Shown piece after piece: positions 36,924 to 62,634 of a DNA stretch of 64,000 nt. How positions within the stretch are numbered: the first letter of the stretch is position 1; every line of letters starts with the position of its first letter. The stretch is taken from assembly GCA_019746225.1 (NCBI GenBank), contig JAIESE010000011.1, forward strand, positions 7 through 64,006, given 5' to 3'. Under the pieces are notes generated by a model that searched no databases, was not told where the DNA came from, and saw nothing but the letters and a program-made list of their open reading frames with translations. A program made the position numbers and the translations under genes. Source of the DNA: Alphaproteobacteria bacterium. GTDB taxonomy: Bacteria; Pseudomonadota; Alphaproteobacteria; Paracaedibacterales; VGCI01.

Positions 36924-39047
36924 TCACTTAGGTGGCACGACCTTCCTAAGTTGTTTGCCTTTTTGAATATCACCAAAGAGTGCTGCAGGCGGCCTAATTG
37001 GCGCATCGTTCGCGGCAGCCCCGGGAGCACCATCACCACCTGGCGGAGGGGGAGGAGGTGGAGGAGGAGCACCATCACGTGGGGGATGAGCACCATCACC
37101 TTCCTCTACTTCTTTGGGGTGAGCTTTAAACACTTTACCAAATTTTCTTCCACCAGCAGGCGCCACTTTAACATGCTCAACTTCTTCTTTGCGAGGGGTA
37201 AACATCTTTATAATGATATGTCTGTTAGCCGGAAGAAGAGGAGTGTACAAATGGGGGTTAGCCTGAAGTGCACGAAGTCTATCAACAAGATTCTTGAAAA
37301 AGATCTGATCTGGCAAGTCACCCTTCGTTGCAATATGTATTGAAGCCAAGTGATAGACTATGGCCTCCAATTCATCCAAAGGTATGTTAACATAGTAACT
37401 GTTCACTTTGCCAAAATCCCCGCCAGTCAATTCTAATTTTTTATAATTATCATAATCAAATGTTAGAAGAAGCAAAAATGGACTTGTTTGTGCTTTTTGT
37501 TCATCAAAGCCCTTTGGATCCTTCTCCTTTGCTGGGGGTTTTAGATAATGATCAAAGCGGTTTTGCTGTGCATGGTATGTACGCAGTATTTCCTCTTCAA
37601 GCTCATGATAATCTATTTCCTTATCATCTTTGAGTCTTGTAGCAATAAAGCCTGCAGCTTCTGCTTTAACACGTCCAGGAATTGCGACTTTCACCTCTTT
37701 CCCATCTACCACTTTATCATAAGCCGTATGGAGGACTTCATTGAGAAGTCCTGTGACTTGGGTTGGATCATATTTTTGAAGTCTACGCTTTCTAGTAATA
37801 TCTACGTATAGGGCTGCTAAATCATCTAAAGTCGCATACTTAAGATAACCCGCAAATGTTGGAGCATTGTTCTTCGACCACGTCGGATCTCTTAATTTGT
37901 CTTTAGCTGTATAGACAAGAACCAAAATGGGATGTTCCTGAAGAAATGCTTCGTCTGGCACTTTTCCCAATTTTGCCAGAGCGGCTTCACCTCTAGGAAT
38001 TATAATTGTAGTCTCATTATGAGCAATTCTTCTATTGTTCATCTTCACAAAGTATTCTTTTAATCTTCCCTGCTCTTGAAGGTCCCCAAAAAGTTTTATT
38101 AATTGTTCCTGACGGACAGAACCATTCTCAGAATTTGCCAATTCTACTGAATAAAGATCAATTAATTTTGAAATATCTTCATCCCCTGGCCTCTCAAATA
38201 AGAACTCTTCTAAGCCATCTTTAAGACGTTTAGGGTCAATCTTGGGAGTTTCTAAGACAGCCTTAATGTCACCCAGAGCCTTCTCAACCGCCGCAGATGA
38301 TGCGGGTGCAGCAGCGCCTCCAGCCTTAAGAAGAGCAATCTCCCTACGAAGTTCATTAATGATGGCATCTTTTTCATCCGCACTTAATGGCTTACCGCCT
38401 TCACCACCTGTCTTGGCATTCGCGAGCCTTGCTTCAAGATCCTGAATTTTACCTTCAAAGGCTTCCTTTTCAGCTGCACCCATCCCACCATGACCGCCAG
38501 CAAGAGACAATTTTCCTGTCGCTCCTTGGGCTCCGCGCGCTCTTTGAATCTCTCCTTCAACGTGTTCAATTTCTGCTTCCAACCCTTGGAGTTGTTCAGC
38601 AGACAAGGCTCTGCCCTCTTGATTCACCTTTCTCCGGTGAAATCCTTGCAACTCATGTAGGTGTGCTTCTAAATGAGCGAGCGCATCATGAGCCCGGGGG
38701 GAGCCCATGGTGGCTTCCCCTTTACCCTTATCTCTTCCTCCTTGGGACACTTTCTGTCCTTGACCCCTTTTACCACCGCCAGTGATGAGATCATTGTATT
38801 CTTGGACCGCTTCTGGTGCATCTCTGTAATCTCTTGGCCATTTTCTTATAATTTGCTTTGCTTCTTGATCACCACTAGCCGCTCTTGCTTCTAATTCGTG
38901 AAAGGCCCTATTTGACTCTGGCCGAGTAGCACCTGGTATGGATACTGGAGTTCGCCCGCCCCTTTGCATAGAATAGGAAGGATTTTCACTTAATATTAAA
39001 GTCACAAGACTTGTTGCAACCAACATTGAAATCTTAAATTTATTCAT
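36924..39047 (-). CDS. secreted coiled-coil protein with C-terminal polyproline + WH2 actin-binding motif (effector candidate)
   Basis: 707 aa. GGAG SD. Signal peptide MNKFKISMLVATSLVTLILSENPSYS. An N-terminal Gly/Glu/Lys-rich coiled-coil region is followed by a central domain I do not recognise. The C-terminus is GAPPPPPPPPPGGDGAPG...PPAALFGDIQKGKQLRKVVPPK. Confidence 0.8.
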   Translation of the reverse strand: MNKFKISMLVATSLVTLILSENPSYSMQRGGRTPVSIPGATRPESNRAFHELEARAASGDQEAKQIIRKWPRDYRDAPEAVQEYNDLITGGGKRGQGQKVSQGGRDKGKGEATMGSPRAHDALAHLEAHLHELQGFHRRKVNQEGRALSAEQLQGLEAEIEHVEGEIQRARGAQGATGKLSLAGGHGGMGAAEKEAFEGKIQDLEARLANAKTGGEGGKPLSADEKDAIINELRREIALLKAGGAAAPASSAAVEKALGDIKAVLETPKIDPKRLKDGLEEFLFERPGDEDISKLIDLYSVELANSENGSVRQEQLIKLFGDLQEQGRLKEYFVKMNNRRIAHNETTIIIPRGEAALAKLGKVPDEAFLQEHPILVLVYTAKDKLRDPTWSKNNAPTFAGYLKYATLDDLAALYVDITRKRRLQKYDPTQVTGLLNEVLHTAYDKVVDGKEVKVAIPGRVKAEAAGFIATRLKDDKEIDYHELEEEILRTYHAQQNRFDHYLKPPAKEKDPKGFDEQKAQTSPFLLLLTFDYDNYKKLELTGGDFGKVNSYYVNIPLDELEAIVYHLASIHIATKGDLPDQIFFKNLVDRLRALQANPHLYTPLLPANRHIIIKMFTPRKEEVEHVKVAPAGGRKFGKVFKAHPKEVEEGDGAHPPRDGAPPPPPPPPPGGDGAPGAAANDAPIRPPAALFGDIQKGKQLRKVVPPK

Positions 39048-47952: not shown

Positions 47953-48370
47953 GCGTTTTTGGTATTTATCTCTCATTGCCTTGTTTCTCGGAGGCGCCAC
48001 CCTTGTGGTGCTGACATCGCTGAATGATCATCTCTTATTTTTTATGATGCCGTCCGATGTGGTGGCGAAGAACCCGAAGACAACCATTCGCTTAGGGGGA
48101 TTGGTTGTAGCAGGCAGTCTCAACCGACAGGACCTTCTCATCACTTTTAAGGTCACGGACGATAAACACACCATTCCGGTTGCTTATAAAGGCATTGCGC
48201 CGGATCTTTTTCGAGAGGGACAAGGTGTCGTGGCACAAGGCGTTTGGGTGAATGGGGTGTTTCAAGCCACCCATCTGTTGGCCAAACATGACGAAAATTA
48301 TATGCCGAAAGAAATTGCCGAAAAGCTGAAAGAAAATGGTCGTTGGCGACCAGCGGAGAATCGCTCATGA
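47936..48370 (+). CDS. ccmE: cytochrome c-type biogenesis heme chaperone CcmE
   Basis: Start trimmed to MKPKHRRFWYLSLIALF. Includes IRLGGLV...V.F.VTD and the heme-binding His context LAKHDENYMPKE. Confidence 0.92.
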   Translation: MKPKHRRFWYLSLIALFLGGATLVVLTSLNDHLLFFMMPSDVVAKNPKTTIRLGGLVVAGSLNRQDLLITFKVTDDKHTIPVAYKGIAPDLFREGQGVVAQGVWVNGVFQATHLLAKHDENYMPKEIAEKLKENGRWRPAENRS

Positions 48371-50607
48371 TATTCGGCTATGCAGGTCAAGCCCTCCTCG
48401 GGATTGCTTTGGTGTTGGCGGGCTTTCAAGCTTTTGGACCCGCTCGCCTCGATGCCCCCCATCGCCTTGCCTATGGACAAGCTCTCTTTCTGTTCAGCGC
48501 CTTTATGCTGCTCACTTATGCTCACGTGACGGATCAATTCTCACTTTTGTCCGTGGTCCAGCATTCCCATACCGCCAAACCGTTGCTGTACAAAATTTCC
48601 GGCGTTTGGGGAAATCACGAAGGGTCGATGCTCCTCATGGTTTTGATTCTTGTCGTCTATGGAGCGGTTGTTGCACGACAAGTCAAAGGCATTGATGCTC
48701 CCTATTCCCTCGCGATACCCCTCATGGGGTTGATGAATTTTGGGTTCCTTCTCTTTGTGGTGATGGCTTGCGACCCCTTTGCGATTGCAGACCCTATCCC
48801 GTTGGAAGGTCAGGATTTGAATCCCCTTCTTCAAGACCCAAGCTTAGCGATTCACCCCCCCATTCTTTACGCCGGCTATGCAGGCTTTTCAGTCCCGTTC
48901 ATTTTTTCTGTGGCAACGTTAATTCATGGCAAAATGCCTGAGACTTTCGCGTCTCTCATGCGCCCCTGGGTACTGGTTGCCTGGACATTCCTTACTCTTG
49001 GGGTTGGTCTTGGAAGTTATTGGGCCTACTACGAGCTGGGATGGGGCGGTTGGTGGTTCTGGGATCCTGTGGAGAATGCCGCGCTCATGCCCTTTCTCAC
49101 AGCCACCGCTTTGGTGCATGCGGTATGTACTTTAGCGGTCACAAAATCCCTTCGGTTATGGACCCTATTCTTGAGCATTTTAACATTTGCTTTATGTCTG
49201 TTCGGCACGTTTTTGGTGCGATCCGGCCTTCTGACCTCCGTACATAACTTTGCTGTTGATCCGGAACGCGGCGCGTTCATTCTCATCCTGTCCTCCTTCT
49301 TGATGTTGCCAGCCCTTGGCCTCTTCCTCTGGCGTTTGAAAGAGATGCGTTCACCCATCCCAACAACACCCGCTTCAAGGCAAGGTCTTATTCTCATGAT
49401 GACCTTGATTCTGGTGACAGGTACGGCAACCATTGCGCTTGGCACCCTTTACCCGCTGATTTTAGAAACATTTGGTCTCAAAATTACGGTGGGTGCTCCT
49501 TATTTCAATGCGACTTTTGTACCCATGATGTTGCCCTTGCTCGTCCTTCTGGGCTTGGGCTTGTGGTATAGCTGGGCGGGTCAAGGACTTAGCCCCTCCT
49601 CCTCAAAATGGCTTCTGCCTATTGTGTGTTTGACCTTCCTCAGTGTTCTTGTTGCGTATTATGGTTTTGGGGTGTGCCATGTCCTCGGACTTGCCGCATT
49701 CATGGGCGCCGTCTGGTCGATTTTGGCAACAGTGGCATACGCCATTAAGAAAAAGAAAATACTCTCAGGCACTATTTTTGCCCACCTTGGCATGGGGGTA
49801 GCGATTCTGGGAATGGTGGGATCGAGCTTAGGCGAAAAAGAGCTCATTACCGTTGTTAAAGTTGGTGATAAAGTTGCCGTTGGTCCAGTCTCTCTCACTC
49901 TTCTTAACGTCATCGACAAGGATGGTCCAAATTACAAGGCGCAACGCGCTATCCTTAAAATCAATCCAGATGGTCCTCTTCTCACGCCTGAGAAACGCTT
50001 GTACTGGACGCAAGGGGTGATTCATGGAGAGTCCGCGATTCGCTCCGTTGGATTCGGGAGATTGCACCATATTTATGTAACGCTTGGTGAAGCATATGAA
50101 GGCAAAAAATGGAGCATCCACGCCTATTACAAACCCTTCATCAATTTGTTGTGGATTGGGATTCTTCTTATGGTATTTGGCGGGATCTTGGCTTCTCGCA
50201 AAAGATTCCGAACCTTGAAAAGGGTATTCCCTATGATGATGATTCTCTTGCAGCCAACCATATGCATAGACGCCCATGAGCAACTCGCGAATCCCGATCT
50301 AGAAGAGCGCGCACGGGCTTTGAGTCAAGTGATTTTATGCCCAACTTGTCAAGGTCAACTCGTTGATGGCTCCCCCGTTGAAGCAGCCATTCAGGTGCGA
50401 CGGGATATTCGAGACGCCTTAAAACAAGGCCAATCGGACGATCAAATCATGAAATCTTTAAGCGCTCAATATGGCCCTCAAGTGATCATCACCCCACGCA
50501 AAGATTGGTCCACTTCCGTTTTGTGGTTTGGTCCGTGGGCCATTTTCCTATTGATTTTCGGGCTCTTCCTCCATAAGAATCGTCAAAAGACACAAAAGGG
50601 AGATTAA
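48367..50607 (+). CDS. ccmF: cytochrome c heme lyase CcmF fused in frame to a CcmH (CycL)-like module
   Basis: The start overlaps the ccmE stop (ATGA). WWD motif GWGGWWFWDPVENA. After ~620 aa of CcmF the same frame continues into MMMILLQPTICIDA...LCPTCQGQ...TM (CcmH-like, LRCxxC-type motif) with no stop codon. Confidence 0.88.
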   Translation: MIFGYAGQALLGIALVLAGFQAFGPARLDAPHRLAYGQALFLFSAFMLLTYAHVTDQFSLLSVVQHSHTAKPLLYKISGVWGNHEGSMLLMVLILVVYGAVVARQVKGIDAPYSLAIPLMGLMNFGFLLFVVMACDPFAIADPIPLEGQDLNPLLQDPSLAIHPPILYAGYAGFSVPFIFSVATLIHGKMPETFASLMRPWVLVAWTFLTLGVGLGSYWAYYELGWGGWWFWDPVENAALMPFLTATALVHAVCTLAVTKSLRLWTLFLSILTFALCLFGTFLVRSGLLTSVHNFAVDPERGAFILILSSFLMLPALGLFLWRLKEMRSPIPTTPASRQGLILMMTLILVTGTATIALGTLYPLILETFGLKITVGAPYFNATFVPMMLPLLVLLGLGLWYSWAGQGLSPSSSKWLLPIVCLTFLSVLVAYYGFGVCHVLGLAAFMGAVWSILATVAYAIKKKKILSGTIFAHLGMGVAILGMVGSSLGEKELITVVKVGDKVAVGPVSLTLLNVIDKDGPNYKAQRAILKINPDGPLLTPEKRLYWTQGVIHGESAIRSVGFGRLHHIYVTLGEAYEGKKWSIHAYYKPFINLLWIGILLMVFGGILASRKRFRTLKRVFPMMMILLQPTICIDAHEQLANPDLEERARALSQVILCPTCQGQLVDGSPVEAAIQVRRDIRDALKQGQSDDQIMKSLSAQYGPQVIITPRKDWSTSVLWFGPWAIFLLIFGLFLHKNRQKTQKGD

Positions 50608-54370: not shown

Positions 54371-55006
54371 CTATCTGATCTTCTTTTCCCCTGCCAAGAT
54401 CACGGAAACAGCTTTTGCCAATTCGTCCGGCGGTGTCGTATGGGGAAAGGATTTCATAAAATGTCCTTGACGATCCATGAGGTAAATCAACGTGCTATGA
54501 TCCATCAAATAATCCGCCATCGTTCCATCCGGCTTGGCTTTGGCGGCATACACCTTATAACTTTTTAAGACCTGATCTATTTCGGGAGACGTTCCTGTGA
54601 GCATCATAAATTTAGTGTGAAAGTTCGTTGCATATATTTTAAGGCTCTCGACCGTGTCGCGCTGCGGGTCAATCGTCACAAATATTGGCACCACGTCATC
54701 CAGATCCCGCCCCAAAGCTTTTAGAGCACCCGACATATTTTCAAGTCCAAGCGGGCAAATGTCGGGACAAAAACTATACCCAAAATAAATGAGAAGGTAT
54801 TTTCCCCTGAATTCGGAGGTGGATCGCCTTGCGCCGTGCTGATCGGTCAGGGTAAAGTCTCCCCCGATCTGCGGCAACCCCTGACCGGGCTGATCATGAA
54901 CGGTGACAACCGCTTGGTCTTTGAGCTGGTGATATATCAACCAAAAACACCCCAAGCCCACACTTAGAGAAAGCACTGCCAAGCTGATAAGTCTTTGTTT
55001 TTTCAT
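54371..55006 (-). CDS. SCO/SenC family copper chaperone
   Basis: Start trimmed to the ATG after GGGAGG. N-terminal TM. CPDICP motif and a distal His (MDHS). Confidence 0.88.
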
Positions 55007-55641
55007 GTCAAACCTCCCTAATTCAGTATTAGCACACCCAATCAACCAATGCCCCTATATAATTTTGGCATATTTCCCATGCGGCAATAAGTTAAAAAGT
55101 ACACTTTTTAGCATATTTGTTATACCGGATTTGCAGATCATTTTGCCATCATAAATAATTGAATAATTTAAATTAAATATTTATTTTTTAAAAATCAATT
55201 TTATCCACAATTTTATTGTCTGAAGGTGTTGATTTTTAATTTCGATAGTGTTTATATAACAGGCAGCGGGATGCGTCTTAGTGTCGCACTTAAATTAAGA
55301 ACCTGACAAATTAAAACAAAAAAAGCAGGTTGCTTAATTTCCCGCCCCTATAAAACGCCAAAGACGACGAACAAATACAAGCGTTCTTATAGGGCCTAAA
55401 ATACTGAAAATAAAAAGAAAGTTGTATTTTAAATTTTTATTGCAAATACAAACAAGTTTAAGACTTAGCGTTTCACTTTTTAGTGCTCGCATTTAATTTT
55501 TAAACCTACTCCTCATTTTTGCAACAAATAAGAAAAGAAAAAGAAAATGCAATTAACTCTTGATAACAAGCCCTTTAGGAACCTGAACATGTGTGATTTT
55601 GTCGCATCTTCAATTCCTTCCCTAGTCGTCTTAAACAATCC

Positions 55642-56668: not shown

Positions 56669-57217
56669 ATGTCTCAAACCGACTGTACCCTCGAAAAATC
56701 ACTTCTTATCATCGATGATGATGCGCCGTTACGCGAACGCCTCGCCAAAACAATGGCCAAACGCGGCTTCACTGTGTCCACGGCAGACAGCATCGCTCAG
56801 GCCCGCGCTTCCATAAAATGGAATGTCCCCAACTACGCCATCGTTGATTTGAAATTAGGGGACGGATCCGGTCTTGAAGTGGTTGATGAAATCCATGCCG
56901 CCAACGATAAAGCCCGCGTCATTGTCTTAACCGGTTATGGGAACATCGCCACCGCCGTCACAGCCATTAAGCATGGCGCCACTGATTATTTGCCAAAACC
57001 GGCCGATGCGGATGCTATAGAACGCACCTTGATGAATATGGGACCTGACCTTCCGCCACCGCCAACCAACCCAATGTCTCCTGACCGCGTTAAGTGGGAA
57101 CATATTCAACGCATCTTCACAGAATGCGGAAATAATGTGTCAGAGACAGCGCGCCAATTGAAAATGCACCGCCGGACTCTCCAGCGCATTTTGGCCAAGC
57201 ACGCGCCACGCGGTTAA
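56669..57217 (+). CDS. regA: RegA/PrrA/ActR-type response regulator
   Basis: 182 aa. Receiver domain (LLIIDDD...VDLKLGDGSG). The highly conserved C-terminal HTH NVSETARQLKMHRRTLQRILAKHAPR is typical of RegA/ActR. Confidence 0.9.
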   Translation: MSQTDCTLEKSLLIIDDDAPLRERLAKTMAKRGFTVSTADSIAQARASIKWNVPNYAIVDLKLGDGSGLEVVDEIHAANDKARVIVLTGYGNIATAVTAIKHGATDYLPKPADADAIERTLMNMGPDLPPPPTNPMSPDRVKWEHIQRIFTECGNNVSETARQLKMHRRTLQRILAKHAPRG

Positions 57218-57246: not shown

Positions 57247-59931
57247 CTAATCAATACCCCCACCTTGCTTCTTCTCAAACCGCGCTTTGAATTCAGGACT
57301 TCTAAAGTCATCGGCATTGTTTATGGGCGACTGGAATTGTAGAACCCGCGAGCCTTTTCGCCACAAACTGCTCCAGGCTTTACTCATCATAATTTGGCCC
57401 TGTTGTGCATAGCTGACATCAAGGCTTGATAAATAGGCGCTATGATCCGAGATCACTTTTGTGCGAAAGCTTGCAAGCAAAGCTTTATTCAGCTCTGGTT
57501 CAGTCTCAGCGAAACCGTTGAGGCTCTCCCATTTTTGGCAGTACCAAACTAATTCTTCTCTTTCCTTATCCCAGGCCCACTGAGGTTTGTCCTCTTCGAC
57601 TTGTTGTTGGTAATCTATGATAACAGCGGCAATATGAGGCTCGGTTTCAAATCTATAGCTGTCTACATAACTAAAATAATCATCAATCGTAAATATTTTT
57701 TGCTCCTGATCAACACCCTTTTCACCCAAGGGCGATACACCACTCCCTCGCCACCTTAATCGTTCGCCAAAGATAATTTGAAATTTTGGATCCCTATAAT
57801 TATCGACAACATTGATGAGTGATTTGCCCTCTATTGCCCGCCCTACTTTACGAGCTGCACTCTTCGTAACGAGATGAATTGAATCTTGAAGTCCTTTCAA
57901 TCCAACCCAACTCGACGATTGACTGAGATAGGCACTAAAATCTGTGACGACCTTCTTTCTAAAGCTTTCAATCCATTCCTGCTTTAGGGCAGCACGATAG
58001 CCTTCTGAAACATCTGCTAAACCATCAATCATCTTCAAAATTTTCCTAAATCTTTTTAGCTCTGTTTTTTCACGTTTCCAGTCCCAATTGGAGTCTTGTT
58101 GTGAGCAATTCTCGCTACAGTTTATAATGGCAGGGCCAATTCTTTTATCTTCCTCAAACAGGGCTGTTAACACAAGATCAAGATATTCCTCAGGATTGTA
58201 AAATCTTTGGTAGGTTTGAAGGTCAATTTTATCAATATCACTAGAGCGATCTGGCTCAAAATCCCCAAGAGCAGATGATCGAGGCGTTAATAGGGGAACA
58301 CTGGGCACCAATCCAATACGAGAATCAGTTGGTTCCTCATGAAGAGGGGATACCTCGAGATGCCCCTGAGAGGATCGCAACTCACGATCATCCACCTCTC
58401 CTAACAAACTTTGTGCCTTACGCATATACCCCGTATAAATCCCAATATGCCCACGGACTTCTGTCACAGCATCACTGAAACATGGAGTTTTATCAAAGAA
58501 CTCTCCTGTAAATAGATAATCTCGCACCTTTTCTTTAGCTGAGGTTTTTAATTGATTCCAATACCCCGCTTGTCCATTAATTCTGGCGTGAACTTCTTTT
58601 TGATAGACAAATTTCAACCGAGAACGTTCTTGAAAGGCACTATACTCCGCCTCATCAATGGCGTTAAATAATTGCTCTAAAGAATCATTACGTTGAGTTT
58701 TCAATCGATGGGCTATTTTGAATTTCCAAATAAATAATTTGTTTTGGATCTGAAAGAGTGTGGTCAACAGAACTTTATAGGTATCCAAGAAATTGACTTC
58801 TTCCTCCCAAGGGTAGCTTTCTTTTGCAAGCCTTCCATTAAGAGCAAGTTGTTTGGCCATAAAGAAGTGATCTTTACGAACCGCTTCAGCAAACTTCTCT
58901 GCTCTTTCACGATCTGAGAGGGCGGGCTGCTCAACATATTCTTTTAACGATTCATAGTCTTCCTCTACCCTCCTTTGAGCAATGGCAACCAGCTCTGAAA
59001 AAGATCGAGGATCCTTAGCATCAGCAAAATAATCAGCAACAGTATTAGCGATATATTCTTGGACCCTTGAAGATCGACCAAGATTCACCCGTTGAGCGCA
59101 CGATTCTGTATGAAAGGCGGCTTGAAGTTCTAAATATAAAGCGTCAAGACTCCAAGTCGCATATTGAGTTTCAAAAGGGCTTTTCTCACCGCCTGTATTT
59201 CTTTGGTATTGAATCACCCGACAATCATCTACAATATAGTGCATCAAATCATAAAGCGATCGAAGCCCAAGAGACCGTGTCCACCAAAAGTAAAGCTCTC
59301 TTTCACTATTCACTAAGAACTGTCCCATAGTCCCATTAATTTTTATTCTATCTTCTTTTGTTATGAGTTCTGCAGCCCTAACGGCTTCTAGGCGCATTAC
59401 ATGGGCTCGCAAGCGATCAAACCCAATATCAGTCCATCGATTCGCTTGTCGTAACGCTTGCAGATATTCAAATCTCTCAAGGCGCTTTATAAAATCACCT
59501 TGTGCAATTTGAAAATCCCCTAATAGAGACCTTTTCAGGCTTTCATAGCTTTGGCTTCCCCATGAATAGAAACGATAACCCGTATGAATAAGAACCTGAT
59601 CAATGGGAGCTACATTCTCTTGAAACAAACCATCTGCTTTGCCTTTGAAGGATTCAAATGCGTCTTTTAACGTACTTTGCAAGAGCTCTGGAACCATTCC
59701 CTCGGCCATTTTCTCATCAACAACCCAAGGTCTGGGAAATACACCGATAGGAACAATATCCTTTTCATAACTGCTAATATTCAGGAAAGGCTTGTCAAAT
59801 TCACCGTGAACAACTTCACGCCGTTTCGCTTCTACCTCCATTGGAAACGTAACCCGGGGTCCTAGCTGAGGCTCACCTGACAACCCTCCAGTTATGACCC
59901 TTAAAACTTCTAGAAAAGCAAAATCAGTCAT
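57247..59931 (-). CDS. large orphan protein with internal C-terminal duplication (hypothetical)
   Basis: 894 aa. AAAGGA SD. No signal peptide and no motif I recognise. There are two degenerate ~150-190-aa repeats (EEDK...W.W.KE..EL...F[RK][KT]KV[VI][TS]D[FH]SAYLS...F[RK][DS]P[KE]F). Confidence 0.7.
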   Translation of the reverse strand: MTDFAFLEVLRVITGGLSGEPQLGPRVTFPMEVEAKRREVVHGEFDKPFLNISSYEKDIVPIGVFPRPWVVDEKMAEGMVPELLQSTLKDAFESFKGKADGLFQENVAPIDQVLIHTGYRFYSWGSQSYESLKRSLLGDFQIAQGDFIKRLERFEYLQALRQANRWTDIGFDRLRAHVMRLEAVRAAELITKEDRIKINGTMGQFLVNSERELYFWWTRSLGLRSLYDLMHYIVDDCRVIQYQRNTGGEKSPFETQYATWSLDALYLELQAAFHTESCAQRVNLGRSSRVQEYIANTVADYFADAKDPRSFSELVAIAQRRVEEDYESLKEYVEQPALSDRERAEKFAEAVRKDHFFMAKQLALNGRLAKESYPWEEEVNFLDTYKVLLTTLFQIQNKLFIWKFKIAHRLKTQRNDSLEQLFNAIDEAEYSAFQERSRLKFVYQKEVHARINGQAGYWNQLKTSAKEKVRDYLFTGEFFDKTPCFSDAVTEVRGHIGIYTGYMRKAQSLLGEVDDRELRSSQGHLEVSPLHEEPTDSRIGLVPSVPLLTPRSSALGDFEPDRSSDIDKIDLQTYQRFYNPEEYLDLVLTALFEEDKRIGPAIINCSENCSQQDSNWDWKREKTELKRFRKILKMIDGLADVSEGYRAALKQEWIESFRKKVVTDFSAYLSQSSSWVGLKGLQDSIHLVTKSAARKVGRAIEGKSLINVVDNYRDPKFQIIFGERLRWRGSGVSPLGEKGVDQEQKIFTIDDYFSYVDSYRFETEPHIAAVIIDYQQQVEEDKPQWAWDKEREELVWYCQKWESLNGFAETEPELNKALLASFRTKVISDHSAYLSSLDVSYAQQGQIMMSKAWSSLWRKGSRVLQFQSPINNADDFRSPEFKARFEKKQGGGID

Positions 59932-59952
59932 ATAAAATTATCCTTTCGTCTC

Positions 59953-60588
59953 TCACTCCATTTTTGCAGCTTGAGAAGCGACACTTCCTTTTATCGTTGC
60001 AGATTCTTGAATGATTTTTGCAACGTAATACGAATTAATCAGAAGCGGCAAGTTCTCCACAACGGCTCGAACAGTAGCGTAAGGAATGGAATAGAAACTA
60101 TCGCATGAATGAAAGAACGAGATTGCCATTCCCCCGAATGTAACCGCCCCAATCCCCCAAATGTATTTACTTGAAGTAATTCTTTGTTTAATAGAAGGCG
60201 GGTCTTGCTTAATGACACTTGATATTTGTTCCAGTTGATTCTTGAGATCCTGCTTATGGCCTGCCTCTAGCCTCGTCAGAGCCTCTTTATGTCTTTCTTC
60301 TTGAGCTTTTAAATTTTCTAACAGTGCAGCTTTAACAGTTTCAATTCTTTTCTCGTTTTCGCCTTGATTTTTGTCTAACAAACCTTTTACGAGGGCTTCA
60401 AGTTGAGGGTCTAGAACTACTGGCTTTTCTTTTTGAGGGTCTAGAACTACCGGTTTTTCTTGCTGAAGAACACCTTGTCCTCCTGCCCCACCCTCTCCTT
60501 CAACTTTCTCTACTCCCAAAAGGGGTTGCAAAAATACCATCAGAATCAAAACACCAAGCGCCGCCTTTACTGCATTTATTATTCTCAC
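59953..60588 (-). CDS. orphan membrane/secreted coiled-coil protein with 10-aa tandem repeat (hypothetical)
   Basis: 211 aa. AAGGAGG SD with a GTG start. N-terminal hydrophobic leader. Includes GEGGAGGQG and EKPVVLDPQK/EKPVVLDPQL. A coiled-coil segment and a C-terminal hydrophobic segment IWGIGAVTFGGMAISFF. Confidence 0.65.
   Translation of the reverse strand: MRIINAVKAALGVLILMVFLQPLLGVEKVEGEGGAGGQGVLQQEKPVVLDPQKEKPVVLDPQLEALVKGLLDKNQGENEKRIETVKAALLENLKAQEERHKEALTRLEAGHKQDLKNQLEQISSVIKQDPPSIKQRITSSKYIWGIGAVTFGGMAISFFHSCDSFYSIPYATVRAVVENLPLLINSYYVAKIIQESATIKGSVASQAAKME
60403..60462 (-). repeat. 2 x 30-bp direct tandem repeat inside the CDS
   Basis: ttgagggtctagaactactggcttttcttt / ttgagggtctagaactaccggtttttcttg, 27/30 identical. 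In frame (10 aa per unit). Confidence 0.9.
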
Positions 60589-60624
60589 AAGAACCTCCTT
60601 TTCCTAAAACACGCTTTTCATATT

Positions 60625-62427
60625 TCAATCACACACAATCCCGTTGGCCTTCGCATACTCAAGCAATTGGGGTCGAATGCTTGGCTGTGCAGGGATACAA
60701 ACATCATTCACAAAATCCGAAACCTCAATGTGGGTCATGCTTCGAATCATGTTTTTAACAAGCGGCACAGAAGCCGCGGACATAGATAAGGTTTGATACC
60801 CAAGACCAATGAGGGCCAAAGCTTCCAAAGGTCGGCCAGCCATTTCCCCACAGATGCTCAACGGGATTTGGGCGGCTTCACACTGATTTTGAATCAACTT
60901 CAAGAAGCTTAAAAATGTGGGCGACAACACGTCGTACTGTGCAGACATTTTGGGGTGCTCTCGATCAATGCCATAAAAAAATTGTAACAAATCATTACTG
61001 CCAACAGATAAGAAATCTACATGCGGAAACAACTGTGACAACTGGCAAACAAGGGAAGGTACTTCAATCATCGCGCCCAATCGAATGGATGTTGGAATCG
61101 GCTTTCCTTTATCACTCTCTTGCGCCATTTCATCTTCAAGGACATCTCGTGCGGCTTTAATTTGGCTCACCTCAGCAACCATTGGCAACATCAGCGTAAG
61201 CTCGCGGCCGGCACTGGCCCGAATGAGGGCTCTCAACTGATGTCTGAGCAAAGTTGGGCGATCAAGAATTGCGGCTGTTGTTCTCTTGACCATACTTGGG
61301 TTTTCAGATTTGACACGTTCGAGGTAGGGTAATACTTTATCCCCTCCAACATCCAAAGTTCGAAAAACAACAGGGTAAGTGCCGCTGCGATTTAAAATTT
61401 CTCGATACAACTTTGTCTGCTCTGCAACATTAGGGAGTTTGGGTTGCATCATAAAAGGAATTTCGGTTCGATAGAGACCCACCCCTTCGGCACCTGCCGC
61501 CTCAATGTAATCAACATCTTCCACCAAGCCAGCATTTAACTGCAAAGAAATCGAAACGCCATCCAAAGTGCAGGCGAACAAGCCGGCCATGGTTTCGCCC
61601 TGTAAATCACGGGTGCGCTGCTTATTTCTCAAGGTTTTTGTATCATATCGACGCAAAATCTCTTCGGGGGGACGAATAAATACGTACCCCTCATTTCCAT
61701 CCACAAGAATTGAATCCCCTGGATTTATTTCACACAAAAAATCCTTCATACCACCTACAACAGGAATCTCTAAGGATCGAGCCACAATGGCGACATGAGA
61801 CGTCTGGGATTGTTCTACAAGAAGGAGTCCCGCAAGGCGTTCTCGGTCATATTCCAACAACTCAGCAGGCCCTATGCGGTCAGCCACAAGAATCATTGGG
61901 TAATCCCACTTGCCGCGCTCAAAACTCTTCGTGCTCCCTGTCAAATATCGCTTTAAGCGAAAAGAAAGATCTTCAAAATCAATAATCCGAGCATGCCACA
62001 GAGACTGCTTTCCCTTCTTGGTGAATTTCTCTTGGATTGACTCCATCGTCCGATCAACCGCATCTAAAGCCGACAATCCATCTTGCACTTTTTCTCGCAG
62101 TTGACGCTGCCAACCTGGGTCATTGGCAAGGAGTAAGTAGACATCCAGGATTTCGCGTGATTCAACTTCAAATTGGATTGGGGACATCGAAATCGATTGC
62201 CTAAATATAAGAGACTGAATTTCATCAGTTAAATGTGTCAAAGCGCGTTCCAGACGAAACAATTCTTTTTCTTTAGATTTTCCTTTGAATTCATGCCGAT
62301 CCGCTGGATTCTTCGCTCCTTCAGAATGATGGATGACCGCCCGGCCTAAACCAACACCTGTATTGAGGCTGATCCCCTCCACTTCATGGGGGAGTGAGAC
62401 CCACTTTTCAGCGCTATTGTCTGTCAT
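60625..62427 (-). CDS. ptsP: phosphoenolpyruvate--protein phosphotransferase (PTS enzyme I; no GAF domain)
   Basis: 600 aa. AGGGAG SD. Phospho-His region SQTSHVAIVARSLEIPVV. PEP-utilizer TIM barrel (GLYRTEIPFM, FLSVGSNDLLQF). The N-terminus starts directly with the EI N-domain. Confidence 0.88.
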   Translation of the reverse strand: MTDNSAEKWVSLPHEVEGISLNTGVGLGRAVIHHSEGAKNPADRHEFKGKSKEKELFRLERALTHLTDEIQSLIFRQSISMSPIQFEVESREILDVYLLLANDPGWQRQLREKVQDGLSALDAVDRTMESIQEKFTKKGKQSLWHARIIDFEDLSFRLKRYLTGSTKSFERGKWDYPMILVADRIGPAELLEYDRERLAGLLLVEQSQTSHVAIVARSLEIPVVGGMKDFLCEINPGDSILVDGNEGYVFIRPPEEILRRYDTKTLRNKQRTRDLQGETMAGLFACTLDGVSISLQLNAGLVEDVDYIEAAGAEGVGLYRTEIPFMMQPKLPNVAEQTKLYREILNRSGTYPVVFRTLDVGGDKVLPYLERVKSENPSMVKRTTAAILDRPTLLRHQLRALIRASAGRELTLMLPMVAEVSQIKAARDVLEDEMAQESDKGKPIPTSIRLGAMIEVPSLVCQLSQLFPHVDFLSVGSNDLLQFFYGIDREHPKMSAQYDVLSPTFLSFLKLIQNQCEAAQIPLSICGEMAGRPLEALALIGLGYQTLSMSAASVPLVKNMIRSMTHIEVSDFVNDVCIPAQPSIRPQLLEYAKANGIVCD

Positions 62428-62634
62428 TTATGACTCCCTTGAACGAGGTGCCACGACCTTTGCCTTTGTTTCCCTGCCTGTCGGACTCAAGTTCATATTC
62501 ACTTTACCATAAATTTTAACAAATCTTGAGCAATTCTTTAAGATATGCTCTAAGAATCCTTGTAACACGATTGGTTGATTCCTATATAACAACTATAAAG
62601 GTTATTTGTATTGAGTTAAATGATGGAGGTAAAA

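Follow-up and report, generated by a model that had tools for sequence, protein, structure and literature searches.

Does a gene for Enzyme I of the phosphotransferase system (PTS) form a functional module with the two orphan genes directly behind it? The question is raised by three genes in a 64,000-nt stretch of alphaproteobacterial DNA (the window, whose coordinates are used throughout), which a first-pass annotation had read as a possible link between signalling of the nitrogen-PTS type and a pair of orphan proteins. Three minus-strand open reading frames (ORFs) were recovered at exactly the coordinates annotated, with 36 and 21 nt between them, each preceded by its own Shine-Dalgarno site, as follows.

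60625..62427, minus strand: PTS Enzyme I gene, 600 amino acids (aa)
59953..60588, minus strand: small orphan gene, 211 aa, GTG start
57247..59931, minus strand: large orphan gene, 894 aa, ATG start
60589..60624, minus strand: gap between the Enzyme I and small genes, 36 nt, containing the AAGGAGG Shine-Dalgarno sequence of the small gene
59932..59952, minus strand: gap between the small and large genes, 21 nt, containing the Shine-Dalgarno sequence of the large gene

The conserved unit proved to be the pair of small and large genes and not the triad with Enzyme I, since small and large are tightly linked in both clades of the family and Enzyme I adjoins them in one clade only. As a whole, this is a variant ptsP locus of the alphaproteobacterial type, with a very rare pair of orphan genes in it. 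Gene structure, the repeats in the large protein, the pattern of conservation and the loss of the GAF domain from Enzyme I were all observed.

Conservation, linkage and rarity of the pair

Genomic context was read for every family member that could be placed. The close clade, in which the large protein is 25-53% identical to that of the window, comprises the window, L001 (large protein P0003), the P0004 contig, L004-6 (P0009), L022 (P0006), L028 (P0010), L029 (P0008) and L030 (P0007), together with L002 (P0002), where the pair is present and only 56 nt of contig precede the small gene. The distant clade (15-17% identity) comprises L003 (P0014), L007 (P0020), L023/24 (P0016), L025 (P0018) and L026/27 (P0021). 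Homology between the large proteins of the two clades was established by profile search (E 1e-17 to 4e-4).

Small and large genes were adjacent and on one strand in every locus examined (13/13 distinct loci, from the close clade, L002 included, and the distant clade), with a gap of 3-38 nt throughout. In the distant clade, a small orphan gene of 162-205 aa directly preceded the large gene in 5/5 loci. The order Enzyme I-small-large on one strand was found in all eight close-clade loci with upstream sequence, whereas no Enzyme I gene lay near any of the five distant-clade loci. The neighbours there were a peptidase gene with ileS/lspA; EipB with RHH; RamC_N, thyX and kdtA; Host_attach; and murC. 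No homologue of either orphan was found within 8 kb of five Holosporales-type ptsP loci (GTDB), which hold the nearest named Enzyme I genes. Since the pair is unlinked in the distant clade and missing near Holosporales ptsP, its linkage to Enzyme I goes back to one ancestral event, confined to one clade, and is indistinguishable from inherited synteny. The nitrogen-PTS module of the first-pass annotation thus stood as a triad kept throughout the close clade, and failed as a general association of the pair with Enzyme I.

Within the close clade the flanks have changed around the triad. Both the window and the P0004 contig have insertions upstream; downstream, the genes that are present or absent by locus include one of 93 aa, a glyoxalase gene and a transposase gene. 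The gap between the Enzyme I and small genes is 17-53 nt in six of the eight loci. In the other two (L001 and L028) it is ~175 nt, which leaves room for a separate promoter. The 93-aa gene follows the large gene in L001 (7085-7366), L022 (8129-8410), L028 (4292-4573) and the P0004 contig, is 61% identical between L001 and L022 and has no Pfam match; it is absent from the window and L004, where regA adjoins the large gene.

The pair is very rare. A word-indexed search of 5.8 billion clusters with the large protein recovered itself and three relatives, and a search of 1.84 billion representative proteins with the large-protein profile gave 19 matches, 10 of them at E <1e-30. With the small protein as single query, the word-indexed search recovered the query alone; a nine-sequence profile gave four matches, all family members. 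Relatives of the large protein were sought by pattern scan in GTDB genomes, metagenome contigs and viral contigs and none was found, and neither orphan has a paralogue within the window. No family of Pfam, NCBIfam, PHROG or PADLOC was matched above noise by the orphan proteins of the window or by their distant homologues. In Pfam at E up to 1, weak families each matched only one of the 17 family members, and the PADLOC scan gave noise only (E 0.0014-0.035), in coiled-coil regions of small proteins.

Both are also real genes under constraint, and they evolve far faster than their neighbours. Between the window and L004, identity was 91% for RegA, 72% for SenC, 69% for an M15 peptidase, 59% for Enzyme I and 27% for the large protein; the small proteins gave no BLAST match. 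GC content and GC content at third codon positions (GC3) of both genes lie below the window mean (z -1.4 to -1.8). Horizontal transfer was considered on this ground and rejected, low GC not being diagnostic: several other orphans of the window have comparably low GC or GC3.

Transcription was assessed from the flanks and gaps, for which the following features were listed.

62428..62619, no strand given: divergent intergenic region 5' of the Enzyme I gene, 192 nt
62619..62592, minus strand: promoter candidate TTAACT-16-TATAGT, consensus match only
57170..57186, minus strand: terminator-like hairpin, ~60 nt past the large-gene stop codon, inside the 3' end of regA

Given the divergent region upstream, a convergent regA downstream (29 nt between its stop codon and that of the large gene) and no terminator-like site between the three genes in a consensus scan, Enzyme I, small and large are most simply read as one transcription unit, and the co-transcription annotated earlier would agree with this. 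The small gene has its AAGGAGG 6 nt ahead of the GTG; AAAGGA precedes the ATG of the large gene and AGGGAG that of Enzyme I. Hairpins had been annotated as absent between the genes, which was borne out for terminators and for the 21-nt gap (no structure on folding, z +0.27). The 36-nt gap holds a weak A/U-rich hairpin overlapping the Enzyme I stop codon (-12.5 kcal/mol, z -1.7; 9/200 shuffles equally good), which has no U-run and hence is no intrinsic terminator. The 192-nt region probably contains the operon promoter; promoter-like matches are no commoner there than in shuffled sequence, so that TTAACT-16-TATAGT is only a candidate. The hairpin past the large gene is a possible end of the transcription unit, but constitutes weak evidence since it folds no better than shuffled sequence.

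Architecture of the two orphan proteins

The large protein is all-alpha, has no signal peptide, as annotated, and carries three copies of one ~160-aa helical module. Its parts are listed below.

59878..59928, minus strand: N-terminal amphipathic helix, aa 2-18, conserved, followed by the proline motif L-x-P-x4-P
58414..58959, minus strand: core module, a cryptic third copy, aa ~325-506
58246..58377, minus strand: disordered linker, aa 519-562, predicted local distance difference test (pLDDT) <50
57754..58239, minus strand: C-terminal module A, aa 565-726, from the module hidden Markov model (HMM)
57265..57708, minus strand: C-terminal module B, aa 742-889, from the module HMM

An internal duplication at the C-terminus had been annotated, and chance cannot account for it. 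When aa 556-747 were compared with aa 748-894 by BLASTP, aa 581-732 aligned with aa 750-893 (28% identity, 152 columns, E 5e-18), and hhalign of the family alignments of modules A and B gave a probability of 99.7% (E 2.2e-25). The two copies delimited by the module HMM agree with the boundaries proposed before. Four motif pairs had been drawn between the copies, three of which are in register; the pairing of FEEDKRIG with VEEDKPQW was wrong, the statistical alignment placing FEEDKRIG opposite FETEPHIA and VEEDKPQW opposite SQQDSNW.

Because the module profile also matches aa ~325-506 (hhalign against module A, probability 95.3%, E 2.2e-8), the large protein has three copies in all. This core module is more divergent than A and B and has an insertion of ~30 aa. 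Common to the modules is the motif order F..A...D.F..AKQ.ALN, NW..E...L..YK, SY.K and S...K.R.YL..GE.FDKT. The core module is the oldest copy; it is the best-conserved part in the distant clade, whose members match profile positions 265-520.

Throughout the family, the N-terminal amphipathic helix with its proline motif, the helical N-terminal domain and the core module are common to the large proteins, which have between zero and two C-terminal modules. Two are present in the proteins of the window, P0002, P0003, P0006, P0009 and P0011, and one, followed by a Ser/Pro-rich tail, in P0004, P0007, P0008, P0010 and P0013. A neighbour-joining tree of modules indicated two separate duplications, one in P0009 and the other in the ancestor of the window protein, P0002, P0003, P0006 and P0011. 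The module has been duplicated at least three times in the family. P0021 (L026, 711-2366; L027, 2576-4231) is a protein of 551 aa with the N-terminal domain, the core module and no C-terminal module, a layout that represents the minimal architecture of the large-protein family.

An AlphaFold2 model of the large protein was built from a 17-sequence alignment (pLDDT 76.1, predicted template modelling score 0.67) and is all-alpha with disordered linkers; a model from a 4-sequence alignment (pLDDT 42) was not used. The N-terminal helix is unpacked from the body of the model (pLDDT ~42) and has a hydrophobic moment of 0.50, reached by 1.1% of shuffles, which makes it a candidate docking or membrane-binding element. 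Foldseek searches of the model against PDB and BFVD gave no match from which a function could be assigned (best E 0.3, TM-scores ~0.1). Matches to G-protein-coupled receptors, tape-measure proteins and other long-helix proteins were treated as meaningless (E >=0.3). PDB sequence searches with the large-family profile and with the two-module region returned noise or generic coiled coils only. Polyanion binding by the modules was also considered and rejected, their charge not being consistently basic (isoelectric point 4.9-9.3).

Three parts make up the small protein: a leader resembling a signal peptide, a charged middle of coiled-coil character and, at the C-terminus, a conserved hydrophobic hairpin. 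The layout of leader, coiled coil and hydrophobic tail had been annotated, and was seen again in the sequence, in hydropathy and in comparison of the family.

60514..60588, minus strand: signal-peptide-like leader, aa 1-25, ...LLG|VEK, read from sequence
60400..60459, minus strand: near-perfect 30-nt tandem duplication, EKPVVLDPQK + EKPVVLDPQL, aa 44-63
59956..60246, minus strand: conserved C-terminal region, aa ~115-211

Hydropathy was scored for nine small proteins (window, L001-L004, L007, L022, L023 and L025), and those of L028-L030 were read directly. On reading of the sequences, all 12 have the leader pattern of a positive start, a hydrophobic core and small residues at positions -1 and -3, most with a junction of the ...G|AEK type. 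C-terminal hydrophobic regions were present in 9/9 of the scored proteins, and L028-L030 read alike. The middle of the protein is variable and charged across the family, with weak resemblance to classical coiled coils. In this variable region of the window protein, the tandem duplication is a recent in-frame repeat expansion.

The C-terminal region is the sole part that can be aligned between the small proteins of the close and distant clades (hhalign probability 93.3%, E 2.7e-7, 77 columns). A PPxFxQxIxxxK motif, one transmembrane (TM)-like helix and a second, less hydrophobic helix were found in all those read. In the window protein the motif reads PPSxxQxIxxxKY, the TM-like helix (IWGIGAVTFGGMAISFF) spans aa 143-159, the second helix is semi-hydrophobic, and there is also a tail with K-I-I-Q-E. 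The small-protein profile gave just sub-threshold matches among PDB sequences, all of them classical coiled coils. The earlier description of the two orphans as a membrane protein and a large cytosolic protein fits these sequences.

Enzyme I and the ancestral ptsP position

Enzyme I of the window has the three Pfam domains PF05524 (PEP-utilisers_N, E 2e-16), PF00391 (PEP-utilizers, E 1.2e-17) and PF02896 (PEP-utilizers_C, E 4e-80) and scores 381.8 bits against TIGR01417 (PTS_I_fam), above the cut-off of 341.7. Its catalytic motifs are present and intact as motifs (QTSHVAIVAR with His211, NDL at 478, ICGEMAG with Cys526). The protein had been labelled ptsP. It scores higher with the PtsP model than with the PtsI model (367.9 versus 301.5 bits), though below both curated cut-offs; the match to NF008283 (PtsP, cut-off 583) covers model positions 204-718 only.

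The Enzyme I of the nitrogen PTS (EI-Ntr) is defined by an N-terminal GAF domain that binds glutamine and alpha-ketoglutarate (PMC2937029, PMC2405797, PMC4848567, PMC13104625). A Pfam scan detected no GAF domain in Enzyme I of the window, L001, L004 and L022, whereas the Enzyme I proteins of L008, L010 and L011, used as controls, were positive (E 1e-12 to 6e-16). Cassette-linked Enzyme I was without GAF wherever the N-terminus could be read (window, P0004 contig, L001, L004-6, L022 and L029). In the window, an in-frame stop codon upstream makes the annotated ORF the longest possible, and there is hence no room for such a domain.

The nearest named relatives of Enzyme I are ~42% identical and ~765 aa each; they belong to Caedibacter varicaedens, Holosporales bacterium UBA9215 and three Alphaproteobacteria metagenome-assembled genomes. 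The alphaproteobacterial ptsP gene lies downstream of lysC (review, PMC13104625). The order lysC-NMO-ptsP was found in four of these five relatives (L008-L010 and L012), and lysC-NMO followed by an Enzyme I gene without GAF (597-610 aa) in L005, L022 and L029; Enzyme I is downstream of lysC in L005, L022, L029 and the P0004 contig. From the GAF-less lysC-NMO-Enzyme I loci of its relatives and the GAF-bearing lysC-NMO-ptsP loci outside the clade, the Enzyme I of the window appears to be an alphaproteobacterial ptsP orthologue that lost its GAF domain in one uncultured, Holosporales-related clade. The ptsP label must be qualified, since this Enzyme I lacks the domain that defines EI-Ntr.

Compared with EI-Ntr of Caulobacter, Sinorhizobium, Rhizobium and Brucella, the window Enzyme I is alike in its three catalytic domains and its His and Cys motifs, in being closer to the PtsP than to the PtsI model, in having GAF-bearing Holosporales PtsP as nearest relatives, and in the position of its relatives' genes downstream of lysC. 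It differs in lacking GAF, in falling under the curated PtsP cut-off and in having behind it an orphan pair such as has been described for no ptsP locus.

Neither lysC nor NMO occurs anywhere in the 64 kb of the window; a divergent orphan gene lies upstream of Enzyme I instead and has replaced the lysC-NMO part. This gene (62620-64000, plus strand) has at least 460 codons and extends past the end of the window, has a signal-peptide-like N-terminus (MMEVKLIKFAMLLSCLLVSTWTFA...) and no Pfam match. Its position is occupied by lysC-NMO in most relatives.

The window is otherwise of ordinary chromosomal character (dcw cluster, glyS, ccmF, Band 7); scans of its 64 kb gave neither a tRNA gene nor an Rfam match at the gathering threshold. 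Further features were noted, as follows.

7883-11209, minus strand: 1108-aa orphan with no Pfam family, directly downstream of ftsZ, low GC
36924-39047, minus strand: 707-aa orphan with no Pfam family, lowest GC3 in the window
48343-50607, plus strand: one 754-aa ORF with Cytochrom_C_asm and CcmF_C (CcmF) and a C-terminal CcmH, an apparent CcmF-CcmH fusion
55046-55641: senC/regB gap of ~600 nt, strongly AT-rich (GC 0.30 in bin 55000-55499; window 0.45)

Both the 1108-aa and the 707-aa orphan are unrelated to the 894-aa protein. A senC/regB gap of similar length is found at the same place in L004.

Explanations for the pair

Our best explanation, held tentatively, is that the small and large proteins form a membrane-tethered scaffold complex. 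The locus would then be a composite of a GAF-less ptsP at the ancestral lysC-NMO-ptsP position and a rare, lineage-restricted two-gene cassette downstream, inserted once behind ptsP in the clade of the window and probably co-transcribed with it; the pair would not need ptsP as a neighbour. The small protein would be exported by its Sec-type signal peptide, its variable coiled-coil region lying in the periplasm and its conserved C-terminal hydrophobic hairpin or tail anchoring it in the inner membrane. The large protein would be cytoplasmic and all-helical, with a helical N-terminal domain and three modules joined by disordered linkers. The small protein may dock it by way of a conserved C-terminal region, perhaps through the N-terminal amphipathic helix of the large protein, and the repeated modules may serve as a multivalent scaffold. 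A two-protein complex at the inner membrane is suggested because an exported small protein and a signal-less large protein stay paired across a deep divergence and at different chromosomal sites.

Known membrane-anchored scaffolds with coiled coils or repeats include PodJ and TipN of Caulobacter, and chlamydial Inc proteins have a bilobed hydrophobic domain. The orphan pair would resemble these in combining a hydrophobic anchor and a coiled coil with a large helical repeat partner or domain. It differs in that no homology to them was found in sequence (Pfam, NCBIfam, PDB) or fold (Foldseek).

Several points count against such a scaffold. Hydrophobicity of the C-terminal segments of the small protein is no more than moderate (Kyte-Doolittle 1.4-1.8 and 0.7-1.6), and a K/R cluster before the first of them contradicts the positive-inside rule in the orientation proposed. 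The scaffold role, the interaction between small and large and the topology of the small protein are things that we infer, and 'scaffold' is the default label for a helical repeat protein without a catalytic motif. Finally, a triad intact in all eight loci despite the changes in its flanks, together with the loss of GAF in the same clade, leaves room for a functional tie to Enzyme I.

An interaction with a host, in which an intracellular Holosporales-like bacterium would secrete the large protein as an effector, with the small protein as its dedicated partner in export or anchoring, is unlikely. It would account for the restriction of both orphans to one lineage and their fast evolution, for the variable number of modules and for the Ser/Pro-rich disordered tails and K/E-rich C-termini of several members; among named organisms, the nearest Enzyme I relatives come from Holosporales endosymbionts, and an ankyrin-repeat gene lies near one distant-clade locus. 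Signals for type IV and type I secretion are usually C-terminal, but in this family the N-terminal domain and core module are best conserved and the C-terminus least, being absent in P0021. Vertical inheritance at core positions (ileS/lspA, thyX/kdtA, murC, ptsP) in two deep clades also argues against an effector, as does the fact that no secretion system or signal was identified in these 64 kb of genome, for which no dedicated predictor was used.

It is likewise improbable that the complex belongs to the PTS, as partner of a GAF-less Enzyme I or as an output of phosphorylation by the nitrogen PTS (PTS-Ntr). It could then supply the input that formerly came through GAF, for example if it tethered Enzyme I to the membrane or sequestered it there. 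This reading is favoured by the constancy of the triad amid rearranged flanks, by the short Enzyme I-to-small gaps in six of eight loci, by the want of a terminator between the window's genes and by the distribution of GAF, which is absent from cassette-linked Enzyme I where its N-terminus was read and present in the nearest cassette-free Enzyme I. In E. coli, the small soluble coiled-coil protein TmaR (YeeX) sequesters Enzyme I at the cell pole. It may thus serve as a precedent for control of Enzyme I by localisation, and for a coiled-coil protein that governs its location, as a PTS link requires; the orphans, however, have no sequence similarity to TmaR, which is soluble and not a membrane protein paired with one of ~900 aa. 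Weighing on the other side are the five distant-clade pairs with no adjacent Enzyme I and the wide gaps in L001 and L028. Moreover, GAF loss and cassette linkage are each one shared event in one clade, so that their coincidence counts as n=1, and no sequence feature of the pair resembled PTS components in Pfam and NCBIfam scans.

A more specific form of this link is quite remote. Here, a tether built of the small and the three-module protein would have replaced GAF in one Holosporales-related clade, binding Enzyme I and setting PTS-Ntr phosphorylation in response to an envelope or periplasmic cue in place of cytoplasmic glutamine and alpha-ketoglutarate.

An accessory or mobile function (anti-phage defence, toxin-antitoxin or prophage remnant) is disfavoured as very unlikely: a two-gene cassette without assigned function, its low GC and GC3 and a transposase gene two genes downstream in L001 would suit it, but no PADLOC or PHROG family exceeded noise, viral contigs held no match, other window orphans share the low composition, and the flanks are core housekeeping genes with synteny stable across the clade.

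Relative to the first-pass annotation, the third module copy and the loss of GAF are new. That a ptsP-type Enzyme I stays intact at its ancestral locus without GAF implies that the nitrogen-status input through this domain is dispensable or replaceable, and the GAF-less clade agrees with the remark of a 2026 review that the GAF model is still to be validated in all bacteria (PMC13104625). The orphans constitute a very rare two-protein family without recognisable fold or domain. Whether or not they act on Enzyme I, their unit is now defined as a pair rather than a triad, and the boundaries of the modules are set. If the pair does bind Enzyme I, it would represent a new route for signals into the PTS; if not, it would be another membrane complex peculiar to one lineage, in Alphaproteobacteria that have been sampled poorly and are probably host-associated.

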